This document shows positions 2,312-41,736 of a DNA stretch of 64,000 nt, one piece after another. The stretch lies in assembly GCA_001029675.1 (NCBI GenBank), contig CP011210.1:453663-517662 (forward strand), written 5' to 3'. The stretch's first letter is position 1. Every line of letters starts with the position of its first letter. The stretch comes from Candidatus Beckwithbacteria bacterium GW2011_GWC1_49_16. GTDB lineage: Bacteria > Patescibacteriota > Microgenomatia > UBA1400 > CG1-02-47-37. A program made the position numbers and the translations under genes. The notes beneath the pieces are model-generated. The model saw only the letters and a program-made list of their open reading frames with translations, had not been told where the DNA came from and did not search any database.

Positions 2312-2340
2312 CGCGGTTTTCGTTAATCTGGCTTCGTTTT

Positions 2341-7119: not shown

Positions 7120-7120
7120 A

Positions 7121-8023: not shown

Positions 8024-8043
8024 AGATAGTTATTTTTTATTCA

Positions 8044-8253
8044 TCACTTTGCCTTACTCCTGTTATATGGATGCCTGTTGTGCGGCATAAGTGAAACATT
8101 TAAATCTTGAGCCTTAGCTTGTATCGCCCCAGGAGTTCTACTCATCTTTAATCCAATAACTCTCGTAGGGGTGTTACCTCTCGCGAGTTTTCGTAGTTGG
8201 GATTCCTGAGTCGGAGACCATTGTTTTCCTTGATTTGCTGGTTTCTTTGTCAT
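8044..8253 (-). CDS. small HTH DNA-binding protein resembling the GcrA N-terminal domain
   Basis: 69 aa. WSPTQESQLRKLARGNTPTRVIGLKMSRTPGAIQAKAQDLNVSL follows the W-x3-E...L-x2-L...G...I...L...R...A...AK...L pattern of GcrA-type or phage HTH proteins. Its start is 2 nt from the lexA stop and its stop is 20 nt upstream of the cyclase start. Confidence 0.45.
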   Translation of the reverse strand: MTKKPANQGKQWSPTQESQLRKLARGNTPTRVIGLKMSRTPGAIQAKAQDLNVSLMPHNRHPYNRSKAK

Positions 8254-8255
8254 AA

Positions 8256-8879
8256 TTAATCACCGCCTTTCTTAATAACATCCTCGACAACGCCTTGAAT
8301 AGAGAAGTCTTCAAATAATAATATTGGTTTATTTTTTGGGTTAGTAGATTCTGGTTGAAGACGTACGTAGCCATCTTCAGGAATTATCTTCTTAATTGTT
8401 GCCTCATCACCAATAAGTGCGACTACACGACTACCGGGGTCAGCTGTTTGCTGTTTTTTAATTAGGACAAAATCTCCATCATCAATTGTTTTTCCGGAAA
8501 CTCTGGCGTTATTCATACTGTCGCCTATTGCCCGTAGGAAAAAATAATTGTCCGGAGTTCCACTGATCTTCGAAGCATCAAATTGAATGTAGGCCTCAAC
8601 ATTTTCGGTAGCTAAGAATGGAACTCCACACGCTACATTGCCTACAAGGGGAATTTGTACTTTGTCAGATGAGTCCGGTAAAGCTAATCCTCGAGTATTT
8701 TCCAGATACCCCTTTTCTTTCAGTGCATCAGTGTGTCGCTGAACGGAGCTTATACTAGCTAAACCCAAGGTCACACGAAGTTCTTCAAGTGTGGGAGTTG
8801 TACCATTTTTATTTGCCTGATCCTTAATAGAAGACAGGACTATCTTTTGCTTTGAGGTTAAAGTCTTTCTCATACGCAC
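8256..8879 (-). CDS. lexA: LexA-like S24 autopeptidase repressor
   Basis: 207 aa. The N-terminus is a LexA-type winged helix (TPTLEELRVTLGLASISSVQRHTDALKEKGYLE). It has a VACG cleavage-site-like segment, the Ser nucleophile GDSM and a downstream KK. Confidence 0.85.
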   Translation of the reverse strand: MRMRKTLTSKQKIVLSSIKDQANKNGTTPTLEELRVTLGLASISSVQRHTDALKEKGYLENTRGLALPDSSDKVQIPLVGNVACGVPFLATENVEAYIQFDASKISGTPDNYFFLRAIGDSMNNARVSGKTIDDGDFVLIKKQQTADPGSRVVALIGDEATIKKIIPEDGYVRLQPESTNPKNKPILLFEDFSIQGVVEDVIKKGGD

Positions 8880-9084
8880 TATTCTACTCTAACTAGCGTA
8901 ATTATGCAAGGGGATTAGTTATTATAAAAAGCCTGTCAAGGGGGTAATTTCATCAAACAGTTTATAAATTGCTGTGTTGATTTAGCCCAATATATCGGTC
9001 TATTTATCATGTAACCCAGGGTTTCACCCACCCCTCCGTGTCACCCGGGCTATATCAAAACGGGGTGATATTGTTATCTTAATT
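8880..9084. promoter_or_regulatory. divergent promoter/operator region between the lexA operon and the ParB-MTase/terminase operon
   Basis: Contains ACAG-N11-CTGT (8957-8975) and CTGT-N20-ACAG, neither of which is a canonical SOS box. It also contains two direct TCACCC copies plus an inverted GGGTGA (9024-9068) just upstream of the 9085 start. Confidence 0.4.
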
Positions 9085-10407
9085 ATGAAAAACATACCTA
9101 TCCAAACGATCGAAGTTCCAATAATGGACCTAGTCTCACCAGACTACAATCCTCGTAAGCATGACGATCTGGCAAAGGAACAATTAAAAGAAAGTATCAG
9201 ACGCTTTGGGATCGTTGACCCAATTGTGGCAAACTCTGCACCAACTCGTAAAAATATAATCATCGGTGGAAATTTTAGATGGGAAACCATAAAGGAGTTG
9301 GGATATAAAACTGTTCCAGTCGTTTATGTAGATATTTCAGATCTGGAAAAGGAAAAAGAGTTGAACATTCGTCTCAATAAGAATACAGGTGAATTTGATT
9401 GGGATTTACTTGCTAAGTTTGATGAGTCATTCCTTGCTGATATTGGTTTTTCCAGTGGTGAACTCGATGGTATTTTTGATATTGACGTCCCAGAAGAATT
9501 CGACCTTGAAAAAGAACTTAAAAAGTTAAATATCCAGAAGATCAATGTTCAAAAAGGTGACATCTATTCTCTTGATGACTCAAAACTAATGTGTGGGGAT
9601 TCTACTATTGAAGCTGATATCTTAAAACTCATGGATGGTAAAAAAGCAGATATGTGTCTGACTGATGAACCATATTTGCTCGATTACGTTGGTGCAAAAC
9701 GTCACGGAAAACCAACAACTGGCTTTGGTGCCAAACGTAACAGAAGGTATCTTGAAACCGATGTTTTGCCGCCTAACTTTATATCCCTTTGGATGTCAAA
9801 TATCGCAAAGGTAGCAAAACCAGATTTCAGCATCATCTCGTACGAAAATTGGAAGAACACCCGAGCCATGTGGGACGAGATCGAGAAGTATTGGAAGGTG
9901 CGCAACATGCTGATATGGAGATTACCAAACAGACACCAGGGGTTTTCAGCTAAATATAAATTTTTCTCAAAATACGATATAGCTATGGTTGGAACAAGTG
10001 AGGGAAACCAAATAAATACAGAGGTGGAAGAAGAACTCCTGCAAAACGAATACGAAACCGCCTTGTATGCAACTTCAGGAAAGCCTCATTGGGAAGGCTA
10101 TGAACATGGAAAGAAGAATCAGCCAACCGATTTTATAGAGTTTAATGCTTCGGATGAAAAACACTCTGGTCAGGGAGTTGTGTTTGGCTGTAAGCCTACA
10201 GAGATTCTTATCCCCTATATCAAGATGCTTACAAAACGTGGCGATTTAATTGTCGAGCCATTTGGGGGAAGTGGAAGCACTCTAATTGCGGCCACCAAAA
10301 TGAAACGACGATGTTACATCATGGAAAAGTCTCCTGTATATACAGAGGTAATTATAAAACGCTGGGAAAATTTAACGGGACAAAAAGCCAAAAAAATCTA
10401 TGGATAA
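9085..10407 (+). CDS. ParB-like nuclease domain fused to a DNA methyltransferase (beta-class N6A/N4C)
   Basis: 440 aa. The N-terminus has a ParB/Srx fold (DYNPRKHD...IVDPIVAN...IIGGNFRWE). The C-terminus has a degenerate DPPY-type motif (TDEPYL) followed by an FGGSGST AdoMet-binding motif, in the permuted beta order. Phage and plasmid ParB-MTase fusions have this architecture. Confidence 0.75.
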   Translation: MKNIPIQTIEVPIMDLVSPDYNPRKHDDLAKEQLKESIRRFGIVDPIVANSAPTRKNIIIGGNFRWETIKELGYKTVPVVYVDISDLEKEKELNIRLNKNTGEFDWDLLAKFDESFLADIGFSSGELDGIFDIDVPEEFDLEKELKKLNIQKINVQKGDIYSLDDSKLMCGDSTIEADILKLMDGKKADMCLTDEPYLLDYVGAKRHGKPTTGFGAKRNRRYLETDVLPPNFISLWMSNIAKVAKPDFSIISYENWKNTRAMWDEIEKYWKVRNMLIWRLPNRHQGFSAKYKFFSKYDIAMVGTSEGNQINTEVEEELLQNEYETALYATSGKPHWEGYEHGKKNQPTDFIEFNASDEKHSGQGVVFGCKPTEILIPYIKMLTKRGDLIVEPFGGSGSTLIAATKMKRRCYIMEKSPVYTEVIIKRWENLTGQKAKKIYG

Positions 10408-10819
10408 CACTATCGAAAAAAGGCAATCAAAAAATAAAGAACAGCTGTTAGAGATACTAAAGAAAACTCCAATAGTTCAAATTGCCTGTGAAAAGGCTGG
10501 AGTAAGTCGAGCCACCTATTATCGATGGCGTAAAGATAACTCTGGATTTTCTCAGGCAAGTGATCAGGCATTATTAGATGGAAGCTTGCTGATAAATGAT
10601 ATGGCCGAAAGTCAAATGATAAGCGCTATCAAAGACAAGAATATGACTGCCATAATCTTTTGGCTTAAGACTCATCATGATGCCTATCGCAATAGAGTTG
10701 AAGTAACCACAACCAATGGCAACCAAGAAATTAACCTTACAGATGAACAAAAGGAACTGTTAAATAAAGCAATAGAGATGGCGGCATTAATTCCGCCCAA
10801 AGAAAACAGCAATGAATGA
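10400..10819 (+). CDS. terS: phage terminase small subunit (HTH type)
   Basis: 139 aa. It has an N-terminal HTH (IACEKAGVSRATYYRWRKDN) and directly precedes, and overlaps, the terminase large subunit. Confidence 0.65.
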   Translation: MDNTIEKRQSKNKEQLLEILKKTPIVQIACEKAGVSRATYYRWRKDNSGFSQASDQALLDGSLLINDMAESQMISAIKDKNMTAIIFWLKTHHDAYRNRVEVTTTNGNQEINLTDEQKELLNKAIEMAALIPPKENSNE

Positions 10820-12356
10820 CCAAGAACAAATAATCAAACAAATTCAGGAAAATCCTGACTTTCGGAAAGTATTAACGAAGGAGAATTTCTATTGGTTTTT
10901 TGTTACCTACTTTCCCCATTATATAACTTGCCCAACCGCTGATTTTCAAAAGGAAATCTTCAATCTCATTCAGAATGAGGAATTACAAAAAATCACAATC
11001 ACAGCCTTTCGCGGGTCGGCAAAATCTACTATTGCAACTTTGGCACTACCCATTTGGGCAATGGTCGGTAAACCCACCAAAAAATATACTCTACTAGTGA
11101 GCTTAACTCAGGGGCTTGCCAAGCAAATTCTTACGAACATAAAACAGGAGCTTTCATCAAACGAACTCCTAATGCGGGATTTTGGACCATTTTCAGAAGT
11201 GGCTGAAGAATGGCGATCTAACTCTCTTGTAATACCACGTTACAATTCCAGAATTTCAGCCATATCGCAAAGTGAAAGAATTAGAGGTCTCAGGCATAGG
11301 CAGTACCGACCAGACCTTATCATTATTGATGATGTTGAGGATCTAGAATCGGTTAAGACAAGAGAAAGCAGAGACAATCTTTGGAATTGGTTTTCGGGTG
11401 AAATAAAGCCTATTGGAGATAGTGGTACCAGAATTATTACCGTAGGCAATTTACTACATTTGGACTCGCTAATGATGCGGATTAAGCAAAACGTTCAAGC
11501 AGGCGCAATGGACGGTATTTATAAAGAATTTCCTTTGTTAGATAGTTATGGAAATATTGCCTGGCCTGGAAAATATCCGACTATGGAGGATATTGAAGCC
11601 AAAAGAAAAGATGTTGCCGACGAGGCAGCTTGGTATCGAGAATTTTTACTAAAAATTATTGCGGACGAAGACAGAATTGTTAAAGGAGCTTGGATTAAAT
11701 ACTACGACACCCTACCGGACTTTGATCGCTATCCGGCAAGATTAATTGCCATAGGAGTCGACTTGGCTATTTCTCTTTTGGCGTCAGCAAATTTAACAGC
11801 CTTAGTACCAGCATACATAGTTGGTTACGGAGACAATCTCCAAGTTTATATTTTGCCTTACATTTTAAACAAACGATTGGATTTTCCTCAAACTATTCAG
11901 GCAATTAAAATTCTTACTGAAAAACTAAAAGTCGGTTATAGACCGCACCCTAGGGTATATATAGAAAGCGTGGGGTATCAGAGTGCGGCTGCCCAACAAC
12001 TAATAGTAGAGCATGTTCTGGCCGAGGAAGTTAGAATTCCACAGTTAGACAAAAGATCAAGACTATCGATAATTTCTCCACTTATTGAGCAAGGCAAAGT
12101 ATTTTTTCCCAGATCAGGAGCTGAAGTGTTAATTGATCAATTACTGAACTTTGGAGTGGAAAAATACGATGATCTAGTTGATGCTTTCACCTTACTTATG
12201 TCAAAAATAATTGAAACAGACCACCCAACGAACAGAAGTACTCATTCAGATTTGCCACCAGAACCAGATCCACACCCTGGTTTGACATGGTCACTTGAAC
12301 ATATGAATGACTTAGGATTTGATCTTGAAACCATCAAACTAAATATGGTTTTCTAA
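10812..12356 (+). CDS. terL: phage terminase large subunit
   Basis: 514 aa with a Walker A (FRGSAKST), a Walker B (DLIIIDDVED) and a C-terminal RNaseH-like nuclease region. No portal or capsid genes follow. Confidence 0.85.
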   Translation: MNDQEQIIKQIQENPDFRKVLTKENFYWFFVTYFPHYITCPTADFQKEIFNLIQNEELQKITITAFRGSAKSTIATLALPIWAMVGKPTKKYTLLVSLTQGLAKQILTNIKQELSSNELLMRDFGPFSEVAEEWRSNSLVIPRYNSRISAISQSERIRGLRHRQYRPDLIIIDDVEDLESVKTRESRDNLWNWFSGEIKPIGDSGTRIITVGNLLHLDSLMMRIKQNVQAGAMDGIYKEFPLLDSYGNIAWPGKYPTMEDIEAKRKDVADEAAWYREFLLKIIADEDRIVKGAWIKYYDTLPDFDRYPARLIAIGVDLAISLLASANLTALVPAYIVGYGDNLQVYILPYILNKRLDFPQTIQAIKILTEKLKVGYRPHPRVYIESVGYQSAAAQQLIVEHVLAEEVRIPQLDKRSRLSIISPLIEQGKVFFPRSGAEVLIDQLLNFGVEKYDDLVDAFTLLMSKIIETDHPTNRSTHSDLPPEPDPHPGLTWSLEHMNDLGFDLETIKLNMVF

Positions 12357-12361
12357 CAACC

Positions 12362-12387
12362 ACAGAAAGACCCTTCGATCTTTCTGT
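12362..12387. terminator. bidirectional intrinsic terminator hairpin between convergent genes
   Basis: Perfect 9-bp stem ACAGAAAGA/TCTTTCTGT with an 8-nt loop. On the plus strand it is followed by ATGGTTTATTTTT. Confidence 0.6.
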
Positions 12388-12392
12388 ATGGT

Positions 12393-12911
12393 TTATTTTT
12401 CACCCTTAAGTTCTTTGTAGTAAGAGTCCTTAAGTGGGTACTCCTTATATGGTCCAAAAGCATATCCAACGGTTGCAACCATATGATCAGCTAGAAAAAC
12501 GGTATTCTTTTTTTTCCAGGTCTCTCGCTGTTCAACTGTGTAGTCGTAACTAAGCATTTTGGTATATTCAGCGTCGAGATCAAATGCTTTTTTGTCGTCA
12601 TATAGAGTGACGTTACATTTTTTCTTACAGCTCTTTTGGACTTCCTCTGCTATTCCCTCGGGATTGGTCTCTCCGGGTTTGATTAAAATGCTAATGTTTT
12701 CATCAGCTTTATTTTCGACTCTAGCCAAAATCTCGTATTCAAAGGCTGGTTTGGTAGTAGCTTCAGCAACCAATTCCTGTTTTTCAGGCGGGGTTTGAAT
12801 ACTGGCTTGGTCGGTAGAAGAGTCCTTACCAACGAGTCCCAAGACGATTATTAAGAGAAGTCCTCCTCCGATAATTAATAGTAATTTCTTCATATTCTCA
12901 CCTCCTTTCAA
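12393..12911 (-). CDS. hypothetical secreted or membrane-anchored protein
   Basis: 172 aa with an N-terminal signal anchor (KKLLLIIGGGLLLIIVLGLVG) and no lipobox Cys. Confidence 0.5.
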   Translation of the reverse strand: MKGGENMKKLLLIIGGGLLLIIVLGLVGKDSSTDQASIQTPPEKQELVAEATTKPAFEYEILARVENKADENISILIKPGETNPEGIAEEVQKSCKKKCNVTLYDDKKAFDLDAEYTKMLSYDYTVEQRETWKKKNTVFLADHMVATVGYAFGPYKEYPLKDSYYKELKGEK

Positions 12912-13009
12912 TGATGTTGTAATACTAACTTACATTTAAGCATATTTCAAGGCTAAATGCTCGCTTTAAGCTAGTGGTGCTCTAGCTCATGGCTATCAAT
13001 AATTAGGAC

Positions 13010-13222
13010 ATGGGCAAAATTACTAAGAATCAAGTAAAATTTGGACACAGAATTCAAAAGAGACGTCAGGGGCTTGGTATAACCCAGGAAGAACTCGCAG
13101 ACAGAGTAAGTCTAAGCAGAACACACATGGGACATATCGAACAAGGTAGGAGATCCCCTTCGCTTGAAGTCTTAAACAAGATTGCAAAAGCACTCAAAAC
13201 TTCCCCAAAAGATTTCTTTTAA
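13010..13222 (+). CDS. XRE-family HTH transcriptional regulator
   Basis: 70 aa. LGITQEELADRVSLSRTHMGHIEQGRRSPSLEVLNKIAKAL is a classic Cro/C1-type HTH. Confidence 0.75.
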   Translation: MGKITKNQVKFGHRIQKRRQGLGITQEELADRVSLSRTHMGHIEQGRRSPSLEVLNKIAKALKTSPKDFF

Positions 13223-13336
13223 TCCCGATTCATCTTCACTTTTTCAGGAAAAGCAATAATTATTTGGCGTCTCAAACTATTGAAAAATGGCAAAGATTTT
13301 TGTATGATATTGATATCAATTGGTAGGTAAATCTAT

Positions 13337-13504
13337 ATGGAAGAACTATTAACTCTCAAAGAAGCGGCACAAGTCTTAAAGGTTCATGCGAATACATTGC
13401 GTTTATGGGACAAAAAGGGTGTTCTGAAAGCTATACGTATTGGGGTAAAAAGGGTGAGAAGATATAAAAAGGAAGATATTGAAAAGTTTATACACAAGAA
13501 ATAA
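13337..13504 (+). CDS. small MerR/excisionase-type HTH protein, possible R-M controller
   Basis: 55-aa ORF not in the track because it is under 60 aa: MEELLTLKEAAQVLKVHANTLRLWDKKGVLKAIRIGVKRVRRYKKEDIEKFIHKK. It matches the AlpA/Xis/MerR-N HTH signature and ends 2 nt before the hsdR start. Confidence 0.55.
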   Translation: MEELLTLKEAAQVLKVHANTLRLWDKKGVLKAIRIGVKRVRRYKKEDIEKFIHKK

Positions 13505-13506
13505 TT

Positions 13507-16017
13507 ATGCAAAAAGAAGCAAAAGCACGGATCAAAATTAACAATCTTCTTCAGGAGTCCGGCTGGAGATTTTTTGATGATGAGCATGGAACGGCGAATA
13601 TAGTTCTAGAAAACAATGTCAAATTGACAAAGCAGGTAGTTGACGAATTAGGCAATGATTTTGATAAAACCAAGAACGGTTTCATAGATTTTCTTCTACT
13701 TGATGAAAAGTGTTTCCCTTATGCAGTGCTGGAAGCTAAATCTGAGGACAAAGATCCTCTAGATGGGAAAGAGCAGGCTAGAAGATACGCCCAGTCACAA
13801 AACGTTCGTTTTATTGTTCTTTCCAATGGTAATGTTCATTACTTCTGGGATTTAGAGCGAGGCAATCCATCTTTTATTTCCTCGTTTCCCACACAAGAAT
13901 CTCTCAAACATTTTGTTTCGTACAAGCCAGACTCTAAGAAATTGACAGAAGAAAAAGTTTCAGAAGATTACATAGCTTTAACTCAAAATCCTACATACCA
14001 AAAAGATCCTCGCTGGCAAGATGAGGTACTTAAACACGATCAAATTCAAGAACAGGATTTGAAGTTTCTACGCCCATATCAACTTAGGGCCATAACTGCT
14101 TTGCAAGAATCTGCCCAAAATGGCAATGACCGTTATCTTTTTGAAATGGCAACTGGTACCGGTAAGACTCTAACCTGTGCCGCCGTTATCAAGCTTTTCC
14201 TGAAAACTGGCAATGCCAAACGAATTCTCTTTTTAGTTGACCGTATTGAGTTGGAAGATCAGGCGGCCAAGAATTTCAAAAAATATTTGGCTAAAGATTT
14301 CACCAGCGTTATTTATAAAGAAAATCGTGATGATTGGCGTAAAGCTGAAATTGTGGTTTCGACTGTTCAAAGCCTTTCAACTAATAATAAATATCAGAAG
14401 TTATTTAATCCTACCGATTTTGATTTAATTATCTCTGACGAGGCACACCGTTCAATTGGTGGTAATAGTAGAGCTGTCTTTGAGTATTTCGTGGGTTACA
14501 AGCTAGGACTTACGGCTACGCCTAAAAACTACCTGAAAGGTATTGATCCAAATCAGCTTAATGCTCGTGATCCTCGGGCTTGGGAAAAACGTCAACTTCT
14601 AGATACCTATAAGACTTTTGGTTGTGAAACAGGAGAACCAACCTTCCGCTATAGTCTTCTTGACGGTGTCAAAGAAGGTTTTCTGGTCAACCCAATAGTT
14701 GCTGATGCCAGAACGGAGATTACTACACAACTCCTTTCTGATGAAGGGTATTCTCTTTTAGTTGATACAGAAGAAGGCAAAGAGGAACAAGTTTTTTATC
14801 AATCAGATTTTGAGCGAAAGTTTTTCTCTGACAAAACTAATCTAATTTTTTGTGAGACTTTCTTAAAGAATGCCTTGATGGATCAAATCTCTGGAGAGGT
14901 TGGCAAAAGCATTATTTACTGTGTGAGTCAAAAACATGCCAGTAAAATTACACAGCTTCTAAATCAGCTCGCTGATAGTTACTGGCCAGGAAAATATAAT
15001 TCCGATTTTGCTGTGCAGGTAACTTCTAATATTCCTGATGCTCAGCAATTCACAATAGGCTTTGCTAATAACAACCTTAATGGTCACACGCCTTGGCTGG
15101 AAGGTTATAAGTCCAGCAAAACTAGAGTTTGCGTGACGGTGGGTATGATGACTACTGGCTATGATTGCCAAGATATATTAAATCTTTGTTTAATGCGGCC
15201 AATTTTTTCCCCAACAGATTTCATTCAGATCAAAGGACGTGGTACACGAAAATACGCCTTTACCTTTGAAAATCGTGAGAATGGTGAAATTGAGAAAGTC
15301 AGGGTTGATAAAGAAAAATTCAAATTATTTGATTTCTTTGCTAACTGTGAGTATTTCGAAGAGAAATATAACTATGATGAAATTCTAAAAATTCCTAAGA
15401 CAATTTCGGGCACAGGACCAGGCGGAGAACCTACGGTTAATATTGATGTGACCATTGGTATCCCAGATCCTCTCAAAACATTCCAAGAAAAAGCGATTGG
15501 TTTACAAGGAATGAAAGTAGATCGCAAGATTTTTGAAAAGTTTGAGGAAACGGTTAAGGCAGATTCTTTCATCAAAGAAAAATACGAAGCTGGCGATATG
15601 CAGGCAGTTGAGGATTATGTGAAGACTGAGGTTTTTGATAAACCTGAAGATTATTTCAATTTAGACAAGCTTCGTAAATCAGTCAAGGTTGACCGTCGGC
15701 TTTCCCTGGGAGAAATAATGGATAAGATTTTTGGGCGGTTAGATAAATTTAAAGATAAAGATGAACTTTTAGAGGAAGAGTTTGAAAAGTTTATCTCAAT
15801 TTACAAGCCAGATAGTAAGTACTACTACCCAATAAAGAATTTCCTCAAAGCTTATATTACTGATAACGAGATTAGAGAAATTGTAGAAACAAAGGAATAC
15901 GGTCGGTTTGCAACAAACCCAAAAGTATCACTAGTAGACTTTAAGGCCTTGAACGGGTACCGTGACGTCGTGCCAGAGTATGTAAAGGACTACGTATCAG
16001 TTAATACGTATATGTAA
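13507..16017 (+). CDS. hsdR: type I restriction enzyme R subunit (short form)
   Basis: 836 aa. The N-terminus is an HsdR_N-type PD-(D/E)xK domain (IDFLLLDEKCFPYAVLEAKS). SF2 helicase motifs follow: GTGKT (Walker A), DLIISDEAHRS (DEAH), and TTGYDCQ motif VI. Confidence 0.8.
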   Translation: MQKEAKARIKINNLLQESGWRFFDDEHGTANIVLENNVKLTKQVVDELGNDFDKTKNGFIDFLLLDEKCFPYAVLEAKSEDKDPLDGKEQARRYAQSQNVRFIVLSNGNVHYFWDLERGNPSFISSFPTQESLKHFVSYKPDSKKLTEEKVSEDYIALTQNPTYQKDPRWQDEVLKHDQIQEQDLKFLRPYQLRAITALQESAQNGNDRYLFEMATGTGKTLTCAAVIKLFLKTGNAKRILFLVDRIELEDQAAKNFKKYLAKDFTSVIYKENRDDWRKAEIVVSTVQSLSTNNKYQKLFNPTDFDLIISDEAHRSIGGNSRAVFEYFVGYKLGLTATPKNYLKGIDPNQLNARDPRAWEKRQLLDTYKTFGCETGEPTFRYSLLDGVKEGFLVNPIVADARTEITTQLLSDEGYSLLVDTEEGKEEQVFYQSDFERKFFSDKTNLIFCETFLKNALMDQISGEVGKSIIYCVSQKHASKITQLLNQLADSYWPGKYNSDFAVQVTSNIPDAQQFTIGFANNNLNGHTPWLEGYKSSKTRVCVTVGMMTTGYDCQDILNLCLMRPIFSPTDFIQIKGRGTRKYAFTFENRENGEIEKVRVDKEKFKLFDFFANCEYFEEKYNYDEILKIPKTISGTGPGGEPTVNIDVTIGIPDPLKTFQEKAIGLQGMKVDRKIFEKFEETVKADSFIKEKYEAGDMQAVEDYVKTEVFDKPEDYFNLDKLRKSVKVDRRLSLGEIMDKIFGRLDKFKDKDELLEEEFEKFISIYKPDSKYYYPIKNFLKAYITDNEIREIVETKEYGRFATNPKVSLVDFKALNGYRDVVPEYVKDYVSVNTYM

Positions 16018-16022
16018 ATATT

Positions 16023-19000
16023 ATGTTAACTCAAGAAACAAAACGAAAAATAGATTCAGCCAGAGATATCCTGGTTGGTAAAGTTCCTGATCCTAAAGCT
16101 CAAGTTGAACAAATTACAACAGCCATGATCTATAAATTCATGGATGATATGGATAAAGATGCTGTGGAACTTGGAGGCAAAGCTCGCTTCTTTACTAATG
16201 GATTTGAAAAATATGCTTGGAGCAAACTTTTAGATTCTAGATTGGGTGGACACGAACGATTAGACCTTTACGCTGAAGCCATAGTACAGATGTCCAGTAA
16301 TCCCCATATTCCCCAATTATTTAGGGATATTTTTAAGGACGCATTTCTACCATATCGTAGTCCGGAAACATTGAGCTTATTCCTTAAGGAGATCAACAGT
16401 TTTACATACGATCATAGTGAGGATTTAGGTGATGCTTTTGAGTATCTACTTTCTATCATGGGTTCCCAAGGAGATGCTGGGCAGTTTCGTACTCCACGTC
16501 ACATAATCGATTTTATAGTAGCTGTAGTTGATCCCAAAAAAGACGATTCAATTTTGGACCCTGCTTGTGGAACTGCTGGATTTTTAATCTCTGCATATAA
16601 ACACATTCTCAAACAACACGATGGTAGGGATGATCCGAAACATAAAGAAAAACCGTTAACACCTGACGACAAAAAGCGATTAATGAACAATCTTTTCGGC
16701 TACGATATTAGTCCTGACATGGTTAAGCTCTCCAAAGTAAACATGTACCTGCATGGCTTTGCTGAACCCAAGATTTTTGAATATGACACTCTTTCTAGCG
16801 ATGAAAAATGGGACGAGACATATGACGTAATTATGGCAAACCCACCATTTATGACTCCAAAAGGCGGCATACGCCCACACAAGCGGTTCAGCGTACAAGC
16901 AAATCGTGCCGAAGTGCTGTTTGTGGATTATATTAAAGAACACCTACGGCCGAATGGTCGAGCGGGAATTATTGTACCTGAGGGGATCATTTTTCAGTCA
17001 GGCAATGCATATAAACAACTCCGTAAAATGTTAGTTGAAGATGGTCTGTTTGCGGTAGTTTCATTACCTAATGGAATATTCAATCCTTACTCTGGGGTAA
17101 AGACAAGTATTTTGTTTTTTGATAATGTGTTAGCAAAAAGAACAAATGAAATATTGTTCGTAAAAATTGACAGCGATGGATTTGACCTCGGAGCTCAAAG
17201 AAGGAAAATTGAAAGTAATGACCTCACTGCCGCCCTGATAATTTTGAAGAAATATATAGAGGACCCCAACACTACTCTCCTAATCGAAGTAAAAAACTTA
17301 GCCACCTTGGTTTCAAAAACAAGAATTTCTGAGAAGGGTGATTATAACTTGAGTAGTGATGAATACAAACAAACCGAAGTAATAAGCAACAAGAGATGGC
17401 CAATGAAGGAATTGGGAAGTTTATTCGAAATGATAAACGGGAGAGCATTTAAAAAAGAAGAATGGAAAACCAACGGAACGCCCATTATCCGAATAGCAAA
17501 TCTCAATGACAATAATGCTGAATTCAATTATTTTGAAGGAAATTGTGATGATAAAATTATTGTCAAAAATGGCGACCTACTTTTTTCCTGGTCAGGAACT
17601 CGTGGCACTTCATTCGGCCCACATATATGGAATAGAGGCAAGGGTGTTCTTAATCAACACATATATAAATTTCAACCCTTACAAGGAGATATAGATATTG
17701 CTTTTGCTTATCTTGTTATAAAAATAATTGTTCCCGAGATCGAAGCCCAAGCTCATGGTGCTGGGGGTCTGGTACATATTACGAAAGAAAAACTTAAACA
17801 TTTTAGAATTCCTGTTCCACCACTTCCTGTTCAAAAGCAAATAGTTGAACAAATTGAAGGTTATCAAAAGATCATTGAGGGAGCAAAACAAGTTGTAAAA
17901 AATTGGAAACCAATAACTGATATCAATCCTGATTGGGAAACAGCACTGATCCAGGATCTTTGTACTTTGGTGCGTGGTAGTTCACCTAGGCCTAAAGGAG
18001 ATAAACGGTATTACGATGGAAAAATCCCCAGACTGATGGTCTCAGACGTAACTAGAGATGGCATGTATACAACTCCCCAAACTGATTCGCTTACAGAAGA
18101 AGGATCTAAGCTTAGTCGTCCAATGAAAAAGGGTGAAGTTGTAATGGCTGTAAGCGGTAATCCAGGGTTGCCAACAATTCTTACAGTTGACGCATGTATC
18201 CATGACGGTTTTGTCGGATTTAGAAAGCTGTCCAGTAAAATAATTCCAGAATTTCTATATTTTATACTTTTGCGCCAAAAGGATGAAAATAACTCTCGAT
18301 CAGTTGGTGCAGTATTTAAAAATCTAACTACAGACCAAATAAAGAAGTTTAAGATTCCTGTCCCCCCTATCAATATCCAACTTGAATTAGTTGAACAAAT
18401 AACCCAAGAGCGTCAGGTTGTTGGTGCCAATGAAGAAATCATCAGAGAGTATGAGGCTAAAATTCAGAACGAGATAAAGGATGTTAATGATGGAAAAGCA
18501 CACTCTCCCCTAAGTAAGAATCAAAATGAACTAATTAAACAGCTTAAGGACGACTTTGAGTCAATTGAGTCAGAAGTTATTAGGATGATGGGCAACAAGG
18601 AGATATTCAAAGAGATTATTGAGATCTCTAAAAGAAATAGCCAGATAAATAAGGGTAACTCCCTGTGGGACTTTCTAAAAGAAAGTTATGTTGCACTAAT
18701 GGTGTCTGCGGTTTGTAGGCAAATTGATACAGACGAACGTTCGTCTAGCTTGGTAAATCTTTTAAGAACAATTCTTTTTAACCCGACAGTTATCCAGAGC
18801 TTAAACAAGGACTGGTATAGCGAACAATATCATCGCGATAACGACATCTTTCCAGGTTTCATGGAAGGAATCGGGAAGGGTGATTTTGAGGAACACTTTG
18901 GTTCAAAAGAATATGTAGATCCAGCTATCGTTTACATGGATCTAAAGAAGCTAGAGGAAGATACAAAAGAAATAAAGAAATACCGCAATAAAAGAATTGC

Positions 19001-19184
19001 CCATTTTGATAAAAAGGAATCACTTTTCAAAGCAAATTATGATGATTTGCATAAAGCAGTAGAAACTGTACGATCAATCGCAAGTAAATATTACTTACTG
19101 CTTAAACAGGGTGGCAATGATCTTATTCCGTCTGATCAAACCGATTGGCAGGAGATACTAACAATTCCCTGGATCAAAAAATAA
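16023..19184 (+). CDS. hsdMS: type I R-M HsdM-HsdS fusion with a C-terminal HEPN/Abi-like domain
   Basis: 1053 aa. The N-terminus is an N6-adenine MTase (DPACGTAGFL motif I; MANPPF motif IV). Two HsdS target-recognition domains follow (LGSLFEMINGRAFKKEEW...NQHIYKF; LCTLVRGSSPRP...FILLRQK) around a central conserved helix. The extra C-terminal domain of about 250 aa contains RNKRIAHFD (R-x5-H). Confidence 0.8.
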   Translation: MLTQETKRKIDSARDILVGKVPDPKAQVEQITTAMIYKFMDDMDKDAVELGGKARFFTNGFEKYAWSKLLDSRLGGHERLDLYAEAIVQMSSNPHIPQLFRDIFKDAFLPYRSPETLSLFLKEINSFTYDHSEDLGDAFEYLLSIMGSQGDAGQFRTPRHIIDFIVAVVDPKKDDSILDPACGTAGFLISAYKHILKQHDGRDDPKHKEKPLTPDDKKRLMNNLFGYDISPDMVKLSKVNMYLHGFAEPKIFEYDTLSSDEKWDETYDVIMANPPFMTPKGGIRPHKRFSVQANRAEVLFVDYIKEHLRPNGRAGIIVPEGIIFQSGNAYKQLRKMLVEDGLFAVVSLPNGIFNPYSGVKTSILFFDNVLAKRTNEILFVKIDSDGFDLGAQRRKIESNDLTAALIILKKYIEDPNTTLLIEVKNLATLVSKTRISEKGDYNLSSDEYKQTEVISNKRWPMKELGSLFEMINGRAFKKEEWKTNGTPIIRIANLNDNNAEFNYFEGNCDDKIIVKNGDLLFSWSGTRGTSFGPHIWNRGKGVLNQHIYKFQPLQGDIDIAFAYLVIKIIVPEIEAQAHGAGGLVHITKEKLKHFRIPVPPLPVQKQIVEQIEGYQKIIEGAKQVVKNWKPITDINPDWETALIQDLCTLVRGSSPRPKGDKRYYDGKIPRLMVSDVTRDGMYTTPQTDSLTEEGSKLSRPMKKGEVVMAVSGNPGLPTILTVDACIHDGFVGFRKLSSKIIPEFLYFILLRQKDENNSRSVGAVFKNLTTDQIKKFKIPVPPINIQLELVEQITQERQVVGANEEIIREYEAKIQNEIKDVNDGKAHSPLSKNQNELIKQLKDDFESIESEVIRMMGNKEIFKEIIEISKRNSQINKGNSLWDFLKESYVALMVSAVCRQIDTDERSSSLVNLLRTILFNPTVIQSLNKDWYSEQYHRDNDIFPGFMEGIGKGDFEEHFGSKEYVDPAIVYMDLKKLEEDTKEIKKYRNKRIAHFDKKESLFKANYDDLHKAVETVRSIASKYYLLLKQGGNDLIPSDQTDWQEILTIPWIKK

Positions 19185-19185
19185 T

Positions 19186-19833
19186 ATGTTGGGTCAAGAT
19201 GTGACTAATAATAACCAGATACAAACATTTATAAGTTCAAATCAATTATGGATTGGTATCGTTTTGGGTTGGCTGCTCACAAGAGTCATGGAGATGTTAC
19301 GTAAACCCTCTATAAGTTTTGGACCTGCTAACGATTCTGAATTCGTTAGAGGGAATAAAAAATTTAAGTTTATAAATGTCACAGTTAAAAACGCTAAGCA
19401 AAATTTTCTGAAGAAATTTTTCTTCGGTAATCCAAGCTTAAATAATGCAAGAGTTTGGGTATCTTTTAAAGACTTTACATCTAACATTGAAATATTAAAA
19501 ATAAATGGTAGATGGGCTTCGACTAAGGAACCTGTAGATTACAGCTCAGGACAACCATTAATTGCAGAGATTCTTCTTCCTTCCCGAGATACGATTCCAC
19601 AAGGAGAAGAAGCCAATATATCAATAGCTATAAAGGAGTCTACAGAAGATTCTTTTTTTGCCTTCAACAATGATAGTTACTTGTACAACTGGAAAAATCC
19701 AGATTTTGAGCTTAAAGATAATAAATATTGGTTAGAAATACGTCTTCTGGCTGATGGAAATGAATATATTGGAAAATTTTTGTTTTCCAATCCATCAAAA
19801 AGTCTTAAAAACTTTAAGATTCACGAATCATAA
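19186..19833 (+). CDS. hypothetical protein trailing the R-M operon
   Basis: 215 aa. It starts 2 nt after the hsdMS stop and has one N-terminal hydrophobic helix. The region is AT-rich. Confidence 0.45.
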   Translation: MLGQDVTNNNQIQTFISSNQLWIGIVLGWLLTRVMEMLRKPSISFGPANDSEFVRGNKKFKFINVTVKNAKQNFLKKFFFGNPSLNNARVWVSFKDFTSNIEILKINGRWASTKEPVDYSSGQPLIAEILLPSRDTIPQGEEANISIAIKESTEDSFFAFNNDSYLYNWKNPDFELKDNKYWLEIRLLADGNEYIGKFLFSNPSKSLKNFKIHES

Positions 19834-19924
19834 TAATTACGGCTTATACTCATCAACCACGCCGTAAAGCAATTTGAAGAGTAACCCCTTTTGAGCCTAG
19901 ACTTCCACGACCCTTCCCGGTACC

Positions 19925-21280
19925 TTGTACCCTGAAATGAGTACAACATACAACCAAAATACGACGATAGAGCCACCAAAAATCGAATATTGCCTCTATG
20001 CACGAAAATCTTCGGAATCTGATGAACGTCAGGCAATGTCCATCGATTCTCAAATCGACGAAATGCTGACTCTGGCTAAGAGAGATAATCTCAAAATTAA
20101 GGAGGTTAAGAAAGAAAGTCATTCAGCCAAAATGTCTGGCTCCAGGCCAGTGTTTACTCAACTTCTTCAAGAACTACGCCAAAAGAAATTTAATGGGATT
20201 CTCACTTGGGCTCCTGACAGATTAAGTAGAAATGCTGGCGATTTGGGATCTGTAGTTGATCTTATGGATCAGGGAAAGCTAATAAAAATTCAAACCTACT
20301 CACAGAGCTTCTCGAATAGCCCAAACGAGAAATTCTTACTCATGATTCTCTGCTCTCAAGCAAAGCTTGAAAACGACAACAAAGGTCTAAATGTCCAACG
20401 AGGACTACGAACTAAGTGTGCGATGGGCTGGAGACCCAGCATAGCCCCCGCAGGATACCTTAATCAGGCTGGCGATGGTCATAAGGATGAACTCATCATT
20501 CTCGATCCCGAACGATCATCTTTCATTGCTCAAATGTTCGAAAGAGTTGGGCATCAAGGCCATAGTGGTCGAGCGATTAAGAATTGGCTTGATAGGATAG
20601 GATTCACAACCAGATTAGGAAACAAGATGCCACTAAGCAAAGTCTACTCAACACTTAATAACCCCTTTTACTATGGAGAATTTGAATTCCCAGTCGGCAG
20701 TGGAACTTGGTATCAAGGAAAACATAAACCCTTGGTTACAAAAGAATTATTCGACAAGGTTCAAGAAGTCCTCATGGTTCCACCCAAAAGTTATCACAAC
20801 AAGATATTTCCATTTAAGAGTATCTTTCGGTGTGGGGGTTGCGGAGGTGGAGTAACGGCTGAAGAAAAAATCAGAAAATTAAAACACGGCGGGTATGCCA
20901 AACATACCTATTATCACTGCGGCAGATCTCTCAATTATGAATGTGACGAGCCATATATTACAGAAGATGACTTAGTAAAACAGTTAATTGCTAATATCGA
21001 TAAAATCAAATTTAATCATACGGGGGTAACAAGAAAAATTCAGGAAGATATTGAACGGTACCACAGACTCAAAACTCAAGTACTTCATCAGGAATTTATA
21101 GATGGACACTTAGCTGAATTTAACAGAATTCCCCAGACTTCAGCTGATAAAAATGAAATGACCAAAAACTATCTATTACACATCTTGCAGATCGGAACAG
21201 CTGAGGAGCGACAGGAAGCTCTCTCATTCATTAAAACAAAATTTATTCTGTCAAAAAGAGCAATAACAATACAAAAATAG
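19925..21280 (+). CDS. large serine recombinase (integrase type)
   Basis: 451 aa. It has a resolvase catalytic N-domain (YCLYARKSSESDERQAMSIDSQ), a recombinase domain, and a zinc ribbon (CGGCGG...HCGRS...C). It lies next to the tRNA-Glu 3' end. Confidence 0.85.
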   Translation: MYPEMSTTYNQNTTIEPPKIEYCLYARKSSESDERQAMSIDSQIDEMLTLAKRDNLKIKEVKKESHSAKMSGSRPVFTQLLQELRQKKFNGILTWAPDRLSRNAGDLGSVVDLMDQGKLIKIQTYSQSFSNSPNEKFLLMILCSQAKLENDNKGLNVQRGLRTKCAMGWRPSIAPAGYLNQAGDGHKDELIILDPERSSFIAQMFERVGHQGHSGRAIKNWLDRIGFTTRLGNKMPLSKVYSTLNNPFYYGEFEFPVGSGTWYQGKHKPLVTKELFDKVQEVLMVPPKSYHNKIFPFKSIFRCGGCGGGVTAEEKIRKLKHGGYAKHTYYHCGRSLNYECDEPYITEDDLVKQLIANIDKIKFNHTGVTRKIQEDIERYHRLKTQVLHQEFIDGHLAEFNRIPQTSADKNEMTKNYLLHILQIGTAEERQEALSFIKTKFILSKRAITIQK

Positions 21281-21455
21281 CCTCAACACCAAGACTGGTG
21301 TTCTTCTCGTGGCTTAAATGCAGGGGAAAAATAGAGGGAAATCTGTGTATTACAGGATCTAAAACGACATTTCGAACAATTCGATCAAAGATTAGCAAGC
21401 AACATCGGGCTTTTCAGCGCAGGCCAACGGGTCGCGCTGAACCTTACGATATATG

Positions 21456-21527
21456 TGACCCCACAGGGAATCGAACCCTGGTTTTCAGGATGAAAACCTG
21501 ATGTCCTAACCGCTAGACGATGGGGCC
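21456..21527 (-). tRNA. tRNA-Glu (UUC)
   Basis: Cloverleaf folded by hand from the reverse complement: GGCCCCA/TGGGGTC acceptor, TCAGG-TTTTCAT-CCTGA anticodon arm (anticodon TTC), T-loop TTCGATT. 72 nt with no encoded CCA. Confidence 0.85.
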
Positions 21528-21556
21528 CTTCGGCAAGCTCAGGGCTAAAGCCCTGG

Positions 21557-21628
21557 TGAGCCCGGAAGGGATCGAACCTTCGACGCACAGATTAAAAGTC
21601 TGTCGCTCTACCACTGAGCTACGGGCCC
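21557..21628 (-). tRNA. tRNA-Lys (UUU)
   Basis: The reverse complement GGGCCCGTAGCTCAGTGGTAGAGCGACAGACTTTTAATCTGTGCGTCGAAGGTTCGATCCCTTCCGGGCTCA folds as a tRNA with anticodon loop CTTTTAA. 72 nt. Confidence 0.85.
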
Positions 21629-21736
21629 GCAAACTTCAAGTATTTTATCAAATAATTGATGCTACCAGCAAATGGGAAATTTTACTTTTAAAACCTATCG
21701 GAATTCAAGACGATCGTTGCGGGCTGGGAGAGGTTA

Positions 21737-22000
21737 TTATGGTTTTCTTGGACCAAAAAGAACGAAGCTTGTGCCGTAGTTGGTTTTGTCATCTGGATCG
21801 CGAAGGCTAATCCAGCCGGCTTGGGCTTCCCGCCAAAATTCCGGATAACGCTCAATCCATTCTTGACGATCGAGTAGGGTGATTTTTTCTTCGTCAGGGG
21901 CGGTTAGCTCGGTAACGGTGCTTTTAAGTTGGGCAATGAAGCTTTTGGCAAAAGGAATGGCTAAAACGCCTGCCTCGCCTAACTTCCTTAATTGACCCAA
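21737..22000 (-). CDS. hypothetical small protein (cassette cargo)
   Basis: 87-aa ORF downstream of the ATPase gene inside the repeat-bounded cassette. No motif recognised. Confidence 0.35.
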   Translation of the reverse strand: MGQLRKLGEAGVLAIPFAKSFIAQLKSTVTELTAPDEEKITLLDRQEWIERYPEFWREAQAGWISLRDPDDKTNYGTSFVLFGPRKP

Positions 22001-22078
22001 AGTAAACTTTTTTGGATTGTCGAATATTTAGGTTGAGTCCTCTGGCTGTTTCATCCTTGTATGACAAACTAATTTCTT

Positions 22079-23413
22079 TCAATACACCTTCCATACTCTT
22101 TTAGAGCCCACAGAGATATCGAATTTCCCAACTGCCACTGGCTGGTCGAGCATAACTATATGTCTGACTTCAGGGTTATACCAATAGCTTTTGTTCAGAG
22201 TGCCGCTGTAAACAAAGTAAGCAATACCTAGCTGTTGGAACAGGCTTTCCGTCATGTAGCCCACCATGGCCGGGTTTTCTACCTCGTCAAAGTGAGCATG
22301 GGCGTGAATTAAGAAAGAGTTGTTTTTTTTACTAAAAACTGGAATACCTAATAAACCCTGTTGATAAGCATAGACAAAGTTATCCCCGGCCTTCTCGATG
22401 CCATAATATTCGTTGTCCAGGTAATTAACCCCGGTGCTAATAAAATTGTTTCTATCAGAATGCCAAATACTCACTTTTCTCATTTCCATCTCAAACATCT
22501 TAGACCTGTTTTCTGGAGTGTAGTAGGCGTACGGACCAATTACCCCAAGGACTCGTCTAAAGATGTAATCGGAGATGTTTGGGGCAAAGACGTCGATTTC
22601 TGCTGGTCCATCAGATTGAAGTATCTCGTCATAAATTTTATAACTTTCCGGCGCCACAAATACAGGATCCTCGTGCACTACTCCTTTGTTTTTTAATCGT
22701 TCTTGCTCGAGCACAGCGCCAGAGAGGTAATCGCCAAATTTCTTCCCTCTAATACTGTAAAATACATCCCGAAGTTGTTCGACCTTATCTAAAACATCTT
22801 GAGGAATCAGTTCGTATGACAAATATTTGAAAGGTTTGGTTTCTCTTCCTAGGTTATTTTTTAGGTATCTGCCGGCGATAAAAACAACCATATCTTCGGT
22901 TACCCCTGACCAACTAAGCATTGTGGCCAGGGTGGGAATTCCAAGCGAGTACCGATGGACCGTATCTCGTGATAAAGACGACTCGCCTTCTAGGTATGCC
23001 CTGTCTAAAAATTGGTCCATTTCTGTCTCAGTCATCCCTTTTAAGGTACGATGATGGATTTTAAATTTCTCCTGTCGAGCTAGTTTTTTTAAATTTTTAT
23101 CATAAACAGAGTCGTTTTGAAAACTTAGCGGCCTTCCTGTAAAGATAGCCCTTGTGTGATTTGAAAGTTCTTTAATTGCGTCTTGATTGTAATAGGTTAT
23201 ATCGTCCTCGGAGAAAAAGTAGACCTCAGACTGGTGGGTTATTTGTTGTAAGTGGTTGACTAGAGTAGTTTTGCCAATCCCTCTAAAGCCCTCAATAATC
23301 ACCAGTTGTTTGTTGTCTGTGGGGGAATTTTGGAAAATATCAAGCACGGCTACTGCCAATTCCTTTTGGCTAGTTGTCAGCTCGATCGGTGATTGATGAA
23401 GCAGGTCTTTCAT
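22079..23413 (-). CDS. P-loop ATPase (AAA / Arch-ATPase-like) with an uncharacterised C-terminal domain
   Basis: 444 aa. It has a Walker A (IIEGFRGIGKTTLVNHL) and a Walker-B-like hydrophobic-strand-D segment. Cassette cargo. Confidence 0.6.
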   Translation of the reverse strand: MKDLLHQSPIELTTSQKELAVAVLDIFQNSPTDNKQLVIIEGFRGIGKTTLVNHLQQITHQSEVYFFSEDDITYYNQDAIKELSNHTRAIFTGRPLSFQNDSVYDKNLKKLARQEKFKIHHRTLKGMTETEMDQFLDRAYLEGESSLSRDTVHRYSLGIPTLATMLSWSGVTEDMVVFIAGRYLKNNLGRETKPFKYLSYELIPQDVLDKVEQLRDVFYSIRGKKFGDYLSGAVLEQERLKNKGVVHEDPVFVAPESYKIYDEILQSDGPAEIDVFAPNISDYIFRRVLGVIGPYAYYTPENRSKMFEMEMRKVSIWHSDRNNFISTGVNYLDNEYYGIEKAGDNFVYAYQQGLLGIPVFSKKNNSFLIHAHAHFDEVENPAMVGYMTESLFQQLGIAYFVYSGTLNKSYWYNPEVRHIVMLDQPVAVGKFDISVGSKRVWKVY

Positions 23414-23523
23414 TAGACGTATTATAGGTCATTTAATAGGGAAAGCAATCCTTACAGGGATAAACCTTGAAGGTTATGAAGGTTAAGCAGATGGGAAATT
23501 ATAGTTTTAAAACCTATCAGAAT

Positions 23524-23964
23524 TTAAGACGATCGTTGAGAAACGGGAGAGGTTTTGGCGGCAGTTTTTGGTTTGGCTGCTTTGGGGGTAGCTTTGGCTT
23601 TGGGGGTAGGTTTAACGACGGCTTTGGTTTTAACGCGGGTGGCGTGGCGGCCGATGCGGGAGCGTAAGTAATTCAGCTTGGCGCGCTTGGGGTGGCCTTT
23701 TTTGACTACTTTGATCTTGGTGATGGATGGGGAAGCCAAGGGCCAGATTTTTTCCACACCGACAGCGTCGGCGGCGATTTTGCGGACGGTGAAGGTTTTA
23801 CCCATTCCCCTGCCCTTAATTCCCATGACTATGCCTTCGAAGGCCTGGGACTGGGTTTTGCCTGCCTCGCCTTTGGCCGGGTCGGCTTCGGTGAACTGGT
23901 GGGTGACTTTGATGGTGTCACCGACGCGAAAGCTGGTTTGATTGAATTTGGCGTAGAGTGCCAT
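23524..23964 (-). CDS. rplS: 50S ribosomal protein L19 with a Lys/Ala/Pro-rich C-terminal extension
   Basis: 146 aa. The core (FRVGDTIKVTHQFTEADPAKGEAGKTQSQAFEGIVMGIKGRGMGKTFTVRKIAADAVGVEKIWPLASPSITKIKVVKKGHPKRAKLNYLR) is L19-like. The tail is KPTPKAKATPKAAKPKTAAKTSPVSQRSS. Confidence 0.85.
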   Translation of the reverse strand: MALYAKFNQTSFRVGDTIKVTHQFTEADPAKGEAGKTQSQAFEGIVMGIKGRGMGKTFTVRKIAADAVGVEKIWPLASPSITKIKVVKKGHPKRAKLNYLRSRIGRHATRVKTKAVVKPTPKAKATPKAAKPKTAAKTSPVSQRSS

Positions 23965-41661: not shown

Positions 41662-41734
41662 GCCTGCGTAGCTCAACCGGTAGAGCAACGGTATCGTAAA
41701 CCGTAGGTAGTCGGTTCGAGTCCGACCGCAGGCT
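41662..41734 (+). tRNA. tRNA-Thr (CGU)
   Basis: GCCTGCG/CGCAGGC acceptor, anticodon arm ACGGT-ATCGTAA-ACCGT, T-arm GTCGG-TTCGAGT-CCGAC. 73 nt. Confidence 0.85.
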
Positions 41735-41736
41735 CT

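Follow-up and report, generated by a model that had tools for sequence, protein, structure and literature searches.

At the 3' end of rplS, the gene for ribosomal protein L19, the chromosome of Candidatus Beckwithbacteria bacterium GW2011_GWC1_49_16 (contig CP011210.1) carries a foreign islet that is bracketed by two 69-nt direct repeats, both of which encode the end of L19, and that contains no recombinase gene. We have analyzed it within a stretch of 64,000 nucleotides, hereafter the window, to which all positions refer. The part of the islet that is unique (21736-23485) spans 1750 bp and holds two open reading frames (ORFs), co-oriented with rplS. That a foreign segment was inserted here and that the end of its target gene was duplicated is evident from the comparison with related genomes. 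How it came in is a matter of probability, and we put at about even the chance that the islet is a decayed, non-autonomous remnant of an integrated element with a site-specific history, of the kind known as cis-mobilizable elements (CIMEs). The features on which the argument rests are the following; an Rfam scan found the two tRNA genes only.

19925..21280, plus strand: large serine recombinase, outside the islet, located at the end of another island, of about 19 kb
21455..21527, minus strand: tRNA-Glu(UUC), ancestral, between the islet and the serine-recombinase island
21554..21628, minus strand: tRNA-Lys(UUU), ancestral downstream neighbor of rplS, on the chromosomal side of the inserted DNA
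21667..21735: distal copy of the repeat, which forms a pseudo-3' end of rplS reading TSPSPQRSS-stop (stop at 21705-21707)
21737..22000, minus strand: 87-aa ORF with a TTG start
22079..23413, minus strand: 444-aa cargo ATPase (P-loop matches only)
23486..23554: proximal repeat copy, consisting of the last nine codons (TSPVSQRSS) and stop of the live rplS (23524-23554) plus 38 nt downstream
23524..23964, minus strand: rplS, the target gene (L19, 146 aa; Pfam Ribosomal_L19, 3e-28)

The two repeat copies are identical at 59 of 69 positions and are spaced 1819 nt from start to start. Read in the L19 frame, the proximal copy gives ...KTSPVSQRSS-stop, the end of the live gene, and the distal copy ...TSPSPQRSS-stop. 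Five of the ten differences between them are clustered in 6 nt (GAGAAAC versus GCGGGCT on the plus strand) inside the formerly coding part, and the other five are scattered. To judge from this pattern, the copies would fit two diverged alleles of one gene end (an attachment site of the attP type that mimics the gene, against attB) better than a recent duplication in place. As to whether they belong to a generic repeat family, a degenerate core of 34 nt matches only these two places in the whole window (none expected, from 100 shuffles), no third copy appeared in a low-stringency blastn of the whole window (word size 7) or in a repeat search of its first 30 kb (seed 11), and the core had no match in viral contigs. 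By eye the repeat contains only short AT-rich palindromes (ACGATCGT, TTTTAAAA) and no dif-like site of the 11-6-11 type. Elements that exploit XerCD at dif (IMEX) would have 28-bp sites of this kind on both flanks, at the replication terminus; in this part of the window the cumulative GC skew keeps rising and does not switch, so that no terminus is evident. Since the repeat includes the complete gene end, the C terminus of L19 stayed intact and the spacer upstream of tRNA-Lys and tRNA-Glu was kept. A promoter inside the repeat was considered as the reason for the duplication and rejected: the TAAAAT -10 element conserved among relatives sits in the unique spacer beside tRNA-Lys, outside the repeat.

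The gene end concerned is peculiar to this lineage. L19 of the window has a C-terminal tail of 35 aa, rich in Lys, Ala and Pro (23527-23625) and ending in QRSS, a tail that is absent from the closest Beckwithbacteria L19 proteins (105-109 aa); some more distant L19 proteins of the candidate phyla radiation (CPR) carry other basic tails. The QRSS ending is encoded by both repeat copies and is absent from all other sampled Beckwithbacteria L19.

The evidence for insertion comes from the gene order of four other Beckwithbacteria lineages, in which gatB-dnaE-pyrG-rplS is followed by tRNA-Lys(UUU), tRNA-Glu(UUC), a gene for a protein of about 285 aa and atpB-atpE-atpF and so on. In two of the four, the rplS stop codon lies 53 and 65 nt from tRNA-Lys, with nothing in between. 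In the window it is the stop codon of the distal copy that lies 76 nt from tRNA-Lys, about where the real rplS stop sits in the relatives. With this ancestral order in the relatives, the 1.75 kb enclosed by the repeats must have been inserted, and the original end of rplS lay where the distal copy is now. The same comparison reveals that the ancestral interval is broken twice, by the 1.75-kb islet between rplS and tRNA-Lys and by about 19 kb between tRNA-Glu and the counterpart of the 285-aa gene (282 aa, 1163-2011, followed by atpB at 356-1099). Judging by the GC content at third codon positions (GC3), the composition of the insert is foreign: 0.43-0.44 in the islet, against 0.61-0.68 in core genes and 0.27-0.36 in the serine-recombinase island. 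The overall GC content of the insert is 41.5%, compared to 52-55% in the flanking core genes.

The islet locus recurs in many independent assemblies of NCBI, ENA, JGI and Logan, and the 444-aa protein and L19 of the window are identical in Candidatus Beckwithbacteria bacterium GW2011_GWB1_47_15 (CPR/Microgenomates). Over 6.5 kb around the islet the assemblies are 100% identical to the window except for two contigs, one with two single-base differences and another with a cluster of differences inside the recombinase gene (see below). The same structure at nearly 100% identity in independent NCBI, ENA and JGI assemblies means that it is not an assembly artifact. The site was filled in all 23 of the longest contigs carrying the identical L19, and the two repeat copies were 1819 nt apart in every fetched locus that spanned both positions (13 such loci, among 15 checked for the repeat). 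The islet is thus apparently fixed in the population, and there is no sign that it still moves.

Neither islet ORF matches a recombinase, transposase, relaxase or replication protein in Pfam, PHROGs, NCBIfam or PADLOC, and no tyrosine recombinase was found among the ORFs scanned (those of the island, those of the islet and 25 other large ORFs of the window). The history that we favor would have run as follows. A circular element with an attachment site that mimicked the rplS end would have integrated site-specifically in an ancestor of the strain, and its insertion into the 3' end of rplS and the downstream spacer would have duplicated the 69-bp gene-end sequence. The recombination module would later have been lost, or the islet may have been mobilized by an integrase supplied in trans, and the non-autonomous remnant would then have become fixed in the population. 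Its single-gene NTPase cargo would act as an NTP-switched sensor or effector, probably in phage defense. In favor of this site-specific history we count that one event explains both repeat boundaries.

Several observations weigh against it. A long perfect core is missing from the repeat, in which identity runs unbroken for 14 and 13 nt at most. Neither an empty site, nor an excised circle, nor alternative cargo was found among the 23 contigs with identical L19 and the 15 repeat-checked loci, and the close sequences available represent the same clone only. The islet holds no remnant of an integrase, relaxase or replication gene, and neither a cognate integrase nor another element with the 69-nt repeat was found. 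The nearest other L19 (among 5.8 billion clusters) is at most 68% identical, which leaves no empty site to compare at the DNA level, although gene order can still be compared. Wider searches for empty sites did not help: in a metagenome collection, both the empty-site pattern (the tRNA-Lys end, 95-125 nt and the rplS tail) and the repeat core had no match, but JGI contigs retrieved by protein look-up do carry the core and that collection lacks even the filled site, which makes the result uninformative, and an L19 search of genome contigs gave 60 loci, all from distant taxa (Thermotogota, Bacilli and others), with the source genome not among them. Finally, genes enter the rplS/tRNA-Lys spacer by more than one route, as seen in another Beckwithbacteria lineage (locus L069-L071, 6366-8156), where a 596-aa gene with a weak PPDK_N match lies between rplS and tRNA-Lys and is not flanked by repeats in that spacer. 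To judge from these two cases the spacer is a recurrent insertion point. The window carries a 607-aa PPDK_N-like gene elsewhere (60746-62569).

The sequence-only reading of this DNA had described the repeats (as about 65 bp rather than 69), the two L19-frame endings, an insert without a recombinase and a nearest recombinase some 400 bp away across the tRNAs, all of which held on closer analysis. It had also called the arrangement a classic site-specific integration scar. The foreign insertion and the duplicated gene end stood up to the comparison of gene order and GC3; the status of the repeats as attachment sites did not gain the same support, in that neither an empty site nor a circle, nor a cognate integrase, nor any related element with this sequence came to light.

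The most serious alternative needs no site-specific recombinase at all. A close donor would have carried the cassette 38 nt after its rplS stop; its DNA would have entered by homologous recombination on one side, through pyrG/rplS, and by illegitimate joining on the other, just upstream of the last 31 nt of the recipient's rplS, with the gene end of the recipient left behind as the distal copy. We consider this possible, though on the doubtful side. It agrees well with the absence of a recombinase from the islet and of a perfect att-like core from the repeat, with the spacer being a recurrent insertion spot that holds another gene without repeats in the lineage mentioned above, and with the outer (tRNA-side) part of the repeat, which is similar to the spacer native to a relative (AATTT(A)CCCATTT in locus L072). 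The QRSS tail in both copies would make the donor a very close relative with ample flanking homology; a closely related donor is, for the same reason, needed by the site-specific model as well. On the other hand, the inner junction of the distal copy has no evident microhomology beyond the repeat, no genome of the donor type is known, and two events (one homologous, one illegitimate) are called for where a single site-specific one would account for both boundaries. The composition of rplS and pyrG is that of ordinary core genes, which speaks against a donor origin, although a close donor would leave no signal. One-sided homologous recombination combined with illegitimate recombination would leave the same scar, and a site-specific origin is therefore what we infer rather than what we observe.

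Quite unlikely, in our opinion, is an origin of the repeat in place, by tandem duplication of the rplS end and spacer (through slippage or unequal crossing-over), with the foreign genes arriving between the copies later or simultaneously and the non-coding copy drifting afterward. The copies are indeed direct, only two in the window and both with the lineage-specific QRSS. Against this, a divergence of 14.5% is odd beside a population that is nearly 100% identical across the compared assemblies, half of the differences fall in one 6-nt cluster in the formerly coding part instead of having accumulated by gradual drift, and two independent events at exactly one place would be needed.

A further candidate for the origin of the islet is its neighbor. 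The island between tRNA-Glu and the 282-aa and atpB genes (about 2012-21440, some 19 kb of low GC) is a decayed prophage with defense genes, which contains, besides the serine recombinase and a small-terminase-like helix-turn-helix protein:

2039-2311, minus strand: GIY-YIG-like ORF (by eye)
3215-4012: DUF5677
6493-7119 and 7121-8023: Cap15-like receptor and CD-NTase of a cyclic-oligonucleotide-based antiphage signaling system (CBASS; PADLOC cyclase, 3e-100)
8256-8879: LexA/CI-like repressor
9085-10407: ParB-DNA methylase
10812-12356: terminase large subunit (phrog_38, 2.5e-76)
13507-16017: hsdR of a type I restriction-modification (R-M) system
16023-19184: 1053-aa HsdM-HsdS-AbiU2(HEPN) fusion

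The recombinase itself has Resolvase, Recombinase and Zn_ribbon_recom domains, and its best NCBIfam match is CcrB (102 bits, far below the cut-off). From the end of this gene (21280) to the distal repeat the distance is 387 bp. This raises the idea that a CcrB-like serine recombinase mobilizes the cassette, or once inserted it, in the way Ccr acts on pseudo-SCC units beside SCCmec (SCC, staphylococcal cassette chromosome) at the rlmH 3' end. Arrays of SCC elements do contain recombinase-less units with direct repeats that restore a gene end, and the short distance and the CcrB match point the same way. Nevertheless, we hold this to be very improbable. The two ancestral tRNA genes lie between island and cassette. 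The 69-nt repeat does not occur at the island boundaries, whose ends share only chance matches of 7-9 nt in a short-repeat search, and the window has no third copy of it. The GC3 of the cassette differs from that of the island, and the sites used by serine recombinases normally share few bases, not 69 bp. The contig with the cluster of differences mentioned above (L089, from JGI 3300024999) bears on the same question: it does not differ from the window in the cassette, the distal repeat and the tRNAs, while its last 90 bp, inside the recombinase gene (window 20956-21043), have 12 substitutions, all of them synonymous. By this evidence the population contains a second allele of the recombinase or a variant of the island, unless the contig end is chimeric. 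If a strain variant, it shows variation of the island that is uncoupled from the islet, which argues against this recombinase being that of the islet. By gene order and composition, the serine recombinase belongs to a separate insertion, across the ancestral tRNAs from the islet.

The main gene of the islet codes for a rare protein. A word-indexed search with the 444-aa ATPase recovered two relatives only, while an exhaustive profile search of 1.84 billion cluster representatives recovered 172, of which 86 at E < 1e-30, nearly all of 400-450 aa. Three members have an organism name, two from Beckwithbacteria and one from Roizmanbacteria (all CPR), and the phage, plasmid and viral collections gave no match. 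An AlphaFold model built from an alignment of 82 sequences reached a mean predicted local distance difference test (pLDDT) of 90 and a predicted template modeling score (pTM) of 0.89; it supersedes an earlier, poor model from three sequences (pLDDT 59). According to this model, the N-terminal half (about residues 1-245) is a predicted P-loop NTPase like those of the signal transduction ATPases with numerous domains (STAND) and AAA+ proteins, with an AAA+-type core and a helical lid, and its best fold matches are NB-ARC, Cdc6/ORC and archaeal Walker ATPases. The Walker A motif (GIGKT, residues 45-49 of the window protein; family consensus G-x-G-K-S/T) is nearly invariant. Two further family motifs of this half are LxGMxxxE and YSLGIPLLA, the latter of which, in our reading, resembles the GLPL motif of NB-ARC. 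The matches of the window protein to Pfam are all below the gathering thresholds (AAA_16 at 24.5 bits with a cut-off of 32.6, AAA_14 at 24.7 with a cut-off of 27). Among the 82 members, 55 match AAA_16 at E <= 0.01 (best 7.6e-07; member scores were not compared with the cut-off), and a few match nSTAND, NB-ARC or NACHT. The window protein has Q99 where 65 of the 82 members have Glu or Asp after strand 3, possibly the Walker B acid, an assignment that an adjacent indel in the alignment makes uncertain; Q99 may weaken hydrolysis.

The C-terminal half is an alpha/beta domain of about 190 aa with the motifs ESPxFVAPES, RK, HxH[DE]H and ESLLQQxGIPY, in which P250, F252, S257, Y261, R303, K313, H374 (within HxH[DE]H), E389, Q393, Y399 and Y410 are near-invariant. 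It has no match in Pfam, among PDB sequences or by fold (DUF6196 at E = 0.016 and 0.2 in two members is not significant), and the longer members of the family offer no informative fusions. One could imagine that this protein is the mobility function itself, a transposition ATPase of the TnsC/IstB type or, through its HxHxH and Tyr, a Rep-like protein, and the cassette a minimal autonomous element; the conserved His-x-His-x-His and Tyr in a domain with no fold match leave some room for it, and still we find it hardly plausible, with TnsC/IstB-type matches that are generic to the P-loop and no better than those to Vps4, DnaA or nucleotide-binding leucine-rich-repeat (NLR) proteins, a family that is rare, has one copy per contig in the loci seen and is missing from the phage, plasmid and viral collections, homologues without flanking repeats in L079, L007 and L078, and an element that is fixed and invariant here.

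A role of the ATPase as an NTP-switched sensor or effector in defense is suggested by its domain type and by its place next to a defense island, and we propose it tentatively, as a guess that falls somewhat short of even. The antiphage architecture that had been read from the sequence is backed to the extent that a P-loop NTPase domain and a defense-island neighborhood are present; the remainder found no such backing. PADLOC models match nothing but the P-loop region (residues 6-119, at E 2e-4 or weaker), and there is no full-length match to a defense model. The protein has neither repeat domains that could serve as sensor nor an N-terminal effector, and so it departs from the tripartite architecture of the Avs proteins. 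The neighbors of its homologues are unrelated to each other (GIY-YIG, a PD-(D/E)XK nuclease, a zinc-ribbon protein, uncharacterized genes), although in one genome the homologue and a downstream gene lie within a lower-GC stretch between core genes. These points speak against defense, for which the arguments are neighborhood and domain type only.

Repeats of other kinds occur near some homologues. In locus L006, a small GIY-YIG gene, the one immediately upstream of the homologue P0002, has a 34-nt direct repeat on its two sides (91% identical; 1486-1519 and 1838-1871). In Beckwithbacteria bacterium COT75 (L081, and also L082), an intergenic repeat of 56-90 nt occupies the region 5401-9269, with the core GGTTGCRGAATAAGTYCTTTRGGGGGAGC at 6800, 8511 and 9239 and a weaker one at 5401. 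Successive genes are enclosed one by one between its copies, and P0071 (7001-8281), a homologue of the ATPase, is one of them. The sequence of this repeat is unrelated to the repeat of the window, and on the opposite strand its copies read as related peptide fragments (LPLKDLFRNxKhxF...).

The second ORF of the islet, of 87 aa, ends 1 nt before the distal repeat and was found in this strain only; the one match at '99%' is the same sequence with L for M at the TTG start. Pfam gave nothing for this ORF even with E allowed up to 10, and its best matches among PDB sequences, AbrB/MazE-like 'addiction module antidote' proteins over residues 3-41 (LRKxG...IP), are non-significant (E = 0.83). The co-occurrence of the two proteins elsewhere, suggested as a check on the cassette, was not seen: the 87-aa ORF stands beside none of the five ATPase homologues with readable neighboring DNA, whose downstream neighbors are also dissimilar to each other, and the ATPase has in it no conserved partner. 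This putative ORF may be a small regulator, an antitoxin-like remnant or no gene.

The most far-reaching possibility combines cargo and repeat. The islet would then be a minimal defense cassette mobilized in trans, with the 69-bp mimic of the rplS end as the working attachment site of an integrase elsewhere in the genome or on a phage or an integrative and conjugative element (ICE), and its cargo would found a new single-gene immune family of the STAND type, with organism-named members in CPR only and with the His/Glu/Tyr-rich C-terminal domain as a new effector or sensor fold. We regard this as unlikely. Elsewhere in the window, a 410-aa ORF (41822-43054, minus strand) in a stretch of low GC (0.42) adjoins tRNA-Thr (41662-41735), where an integrase would classically lie; Pfam, PHROGs and NCBIfam gave no match to it.

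The mobile elements and defense systems of CPR/Patescibacteria are poorly charted. The interval from rplS through tRNA-Lys and tRNA-Glu to the atp genes is a hotspot of gene gain in Beckwithbacteria, and a single genome here contains two elements in it, an islet without recombinase and the remnant of a serine-recombinase prophage, the latter equipped with CBASS and a type I R-M/AbiU2 fusion. The scar is of a well-known type and by itself raises no new question; the islet adds a case of the CIME-like kind, located at the 3' end of a ribosomal-protein gene, from a CPR bacterium. The most useful by-product is perhaps the NTPase family (172 clusters), which is rare, confidently folded and unannotated and which makes a reasonable candidate for functional testing.

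Among known systems the closest are the CIMEs, presented in the excerpted text of PMC5704250 as decayed elements that keep attL and attR and have lost their integration and transfer genes. The islet is likewise a short segment without genes for integration, excision or transfer, between imperfect direct repeats, one of which contains the 3' end of a ribosomal-protein gene (left intact), and it lies beside another integrated element. It differs in that it has no known functional parent sharing its att site and no identified integrase of matching specificity, in its size (1.75 kb with one or two genes, much smaller than the described CIMEs), in its CPR host and in its neighbor element, which is behind two tRNA genes and not in tandem at the same att site. 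The same excerpts (PMC5704250) report tyrosine-integrase elements that target the 3' ends of rplL, rpmE, rpmG and rpsI and have one flanking repeat that includes the gene end; rplS is not among the targets named in them. The islet resembles IME_rplL, IME_rpmE, IME_rpmG and IMESag-rpsI (IME, integrative and mobilizable element) in its ribosomal-protein target and in the repeat that re-encodes the gene end, while these are elements of 6-17 kb with an integrase and usually a relaxase, neither of which the islet encodes. Having no tyrosine, serine or DDE recombinase of its own, it is not an autonomous integrative element (IME, ICE or prophage).

The pseudo-SCC units of SCCmec at the rlmH 3' end are similar as recombinase-less cargo at the end of a translation-related gene, with direct repeats and a Ccr-like recombinase near. 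In the window, however, the recombinase island lacks these repeats and is separated by tRNAs, and the repeat of the islet is 69 bp at 86% identity instead of a short integration site; a composite island of the SCC kind would have tandem integration-site repeats shared with the recombinase unit, which are not found here. Nor is the islet an integron cassette, given that the scanned ORFs include no tyrosine recombinase and that its repeat is a gene end, not the imperfect inverted repeat of attC. As to the cargo, it shares with the STAND NTPases (NB-ARC, AAA_16 and archaeal ATPase_2, including the antiviral Avs) the Walker A motif, an AAA+-like core with helical lid, LxGMxxxE and a GLPL-like motif. 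It is distinguished from STAND and Avs proteins by a length of only 444 aa, without N-terminal effector or TPR, WD or LRR sensor, and by the compact alpha/beta domain, with no fold match, that stands at its C terminus instead.

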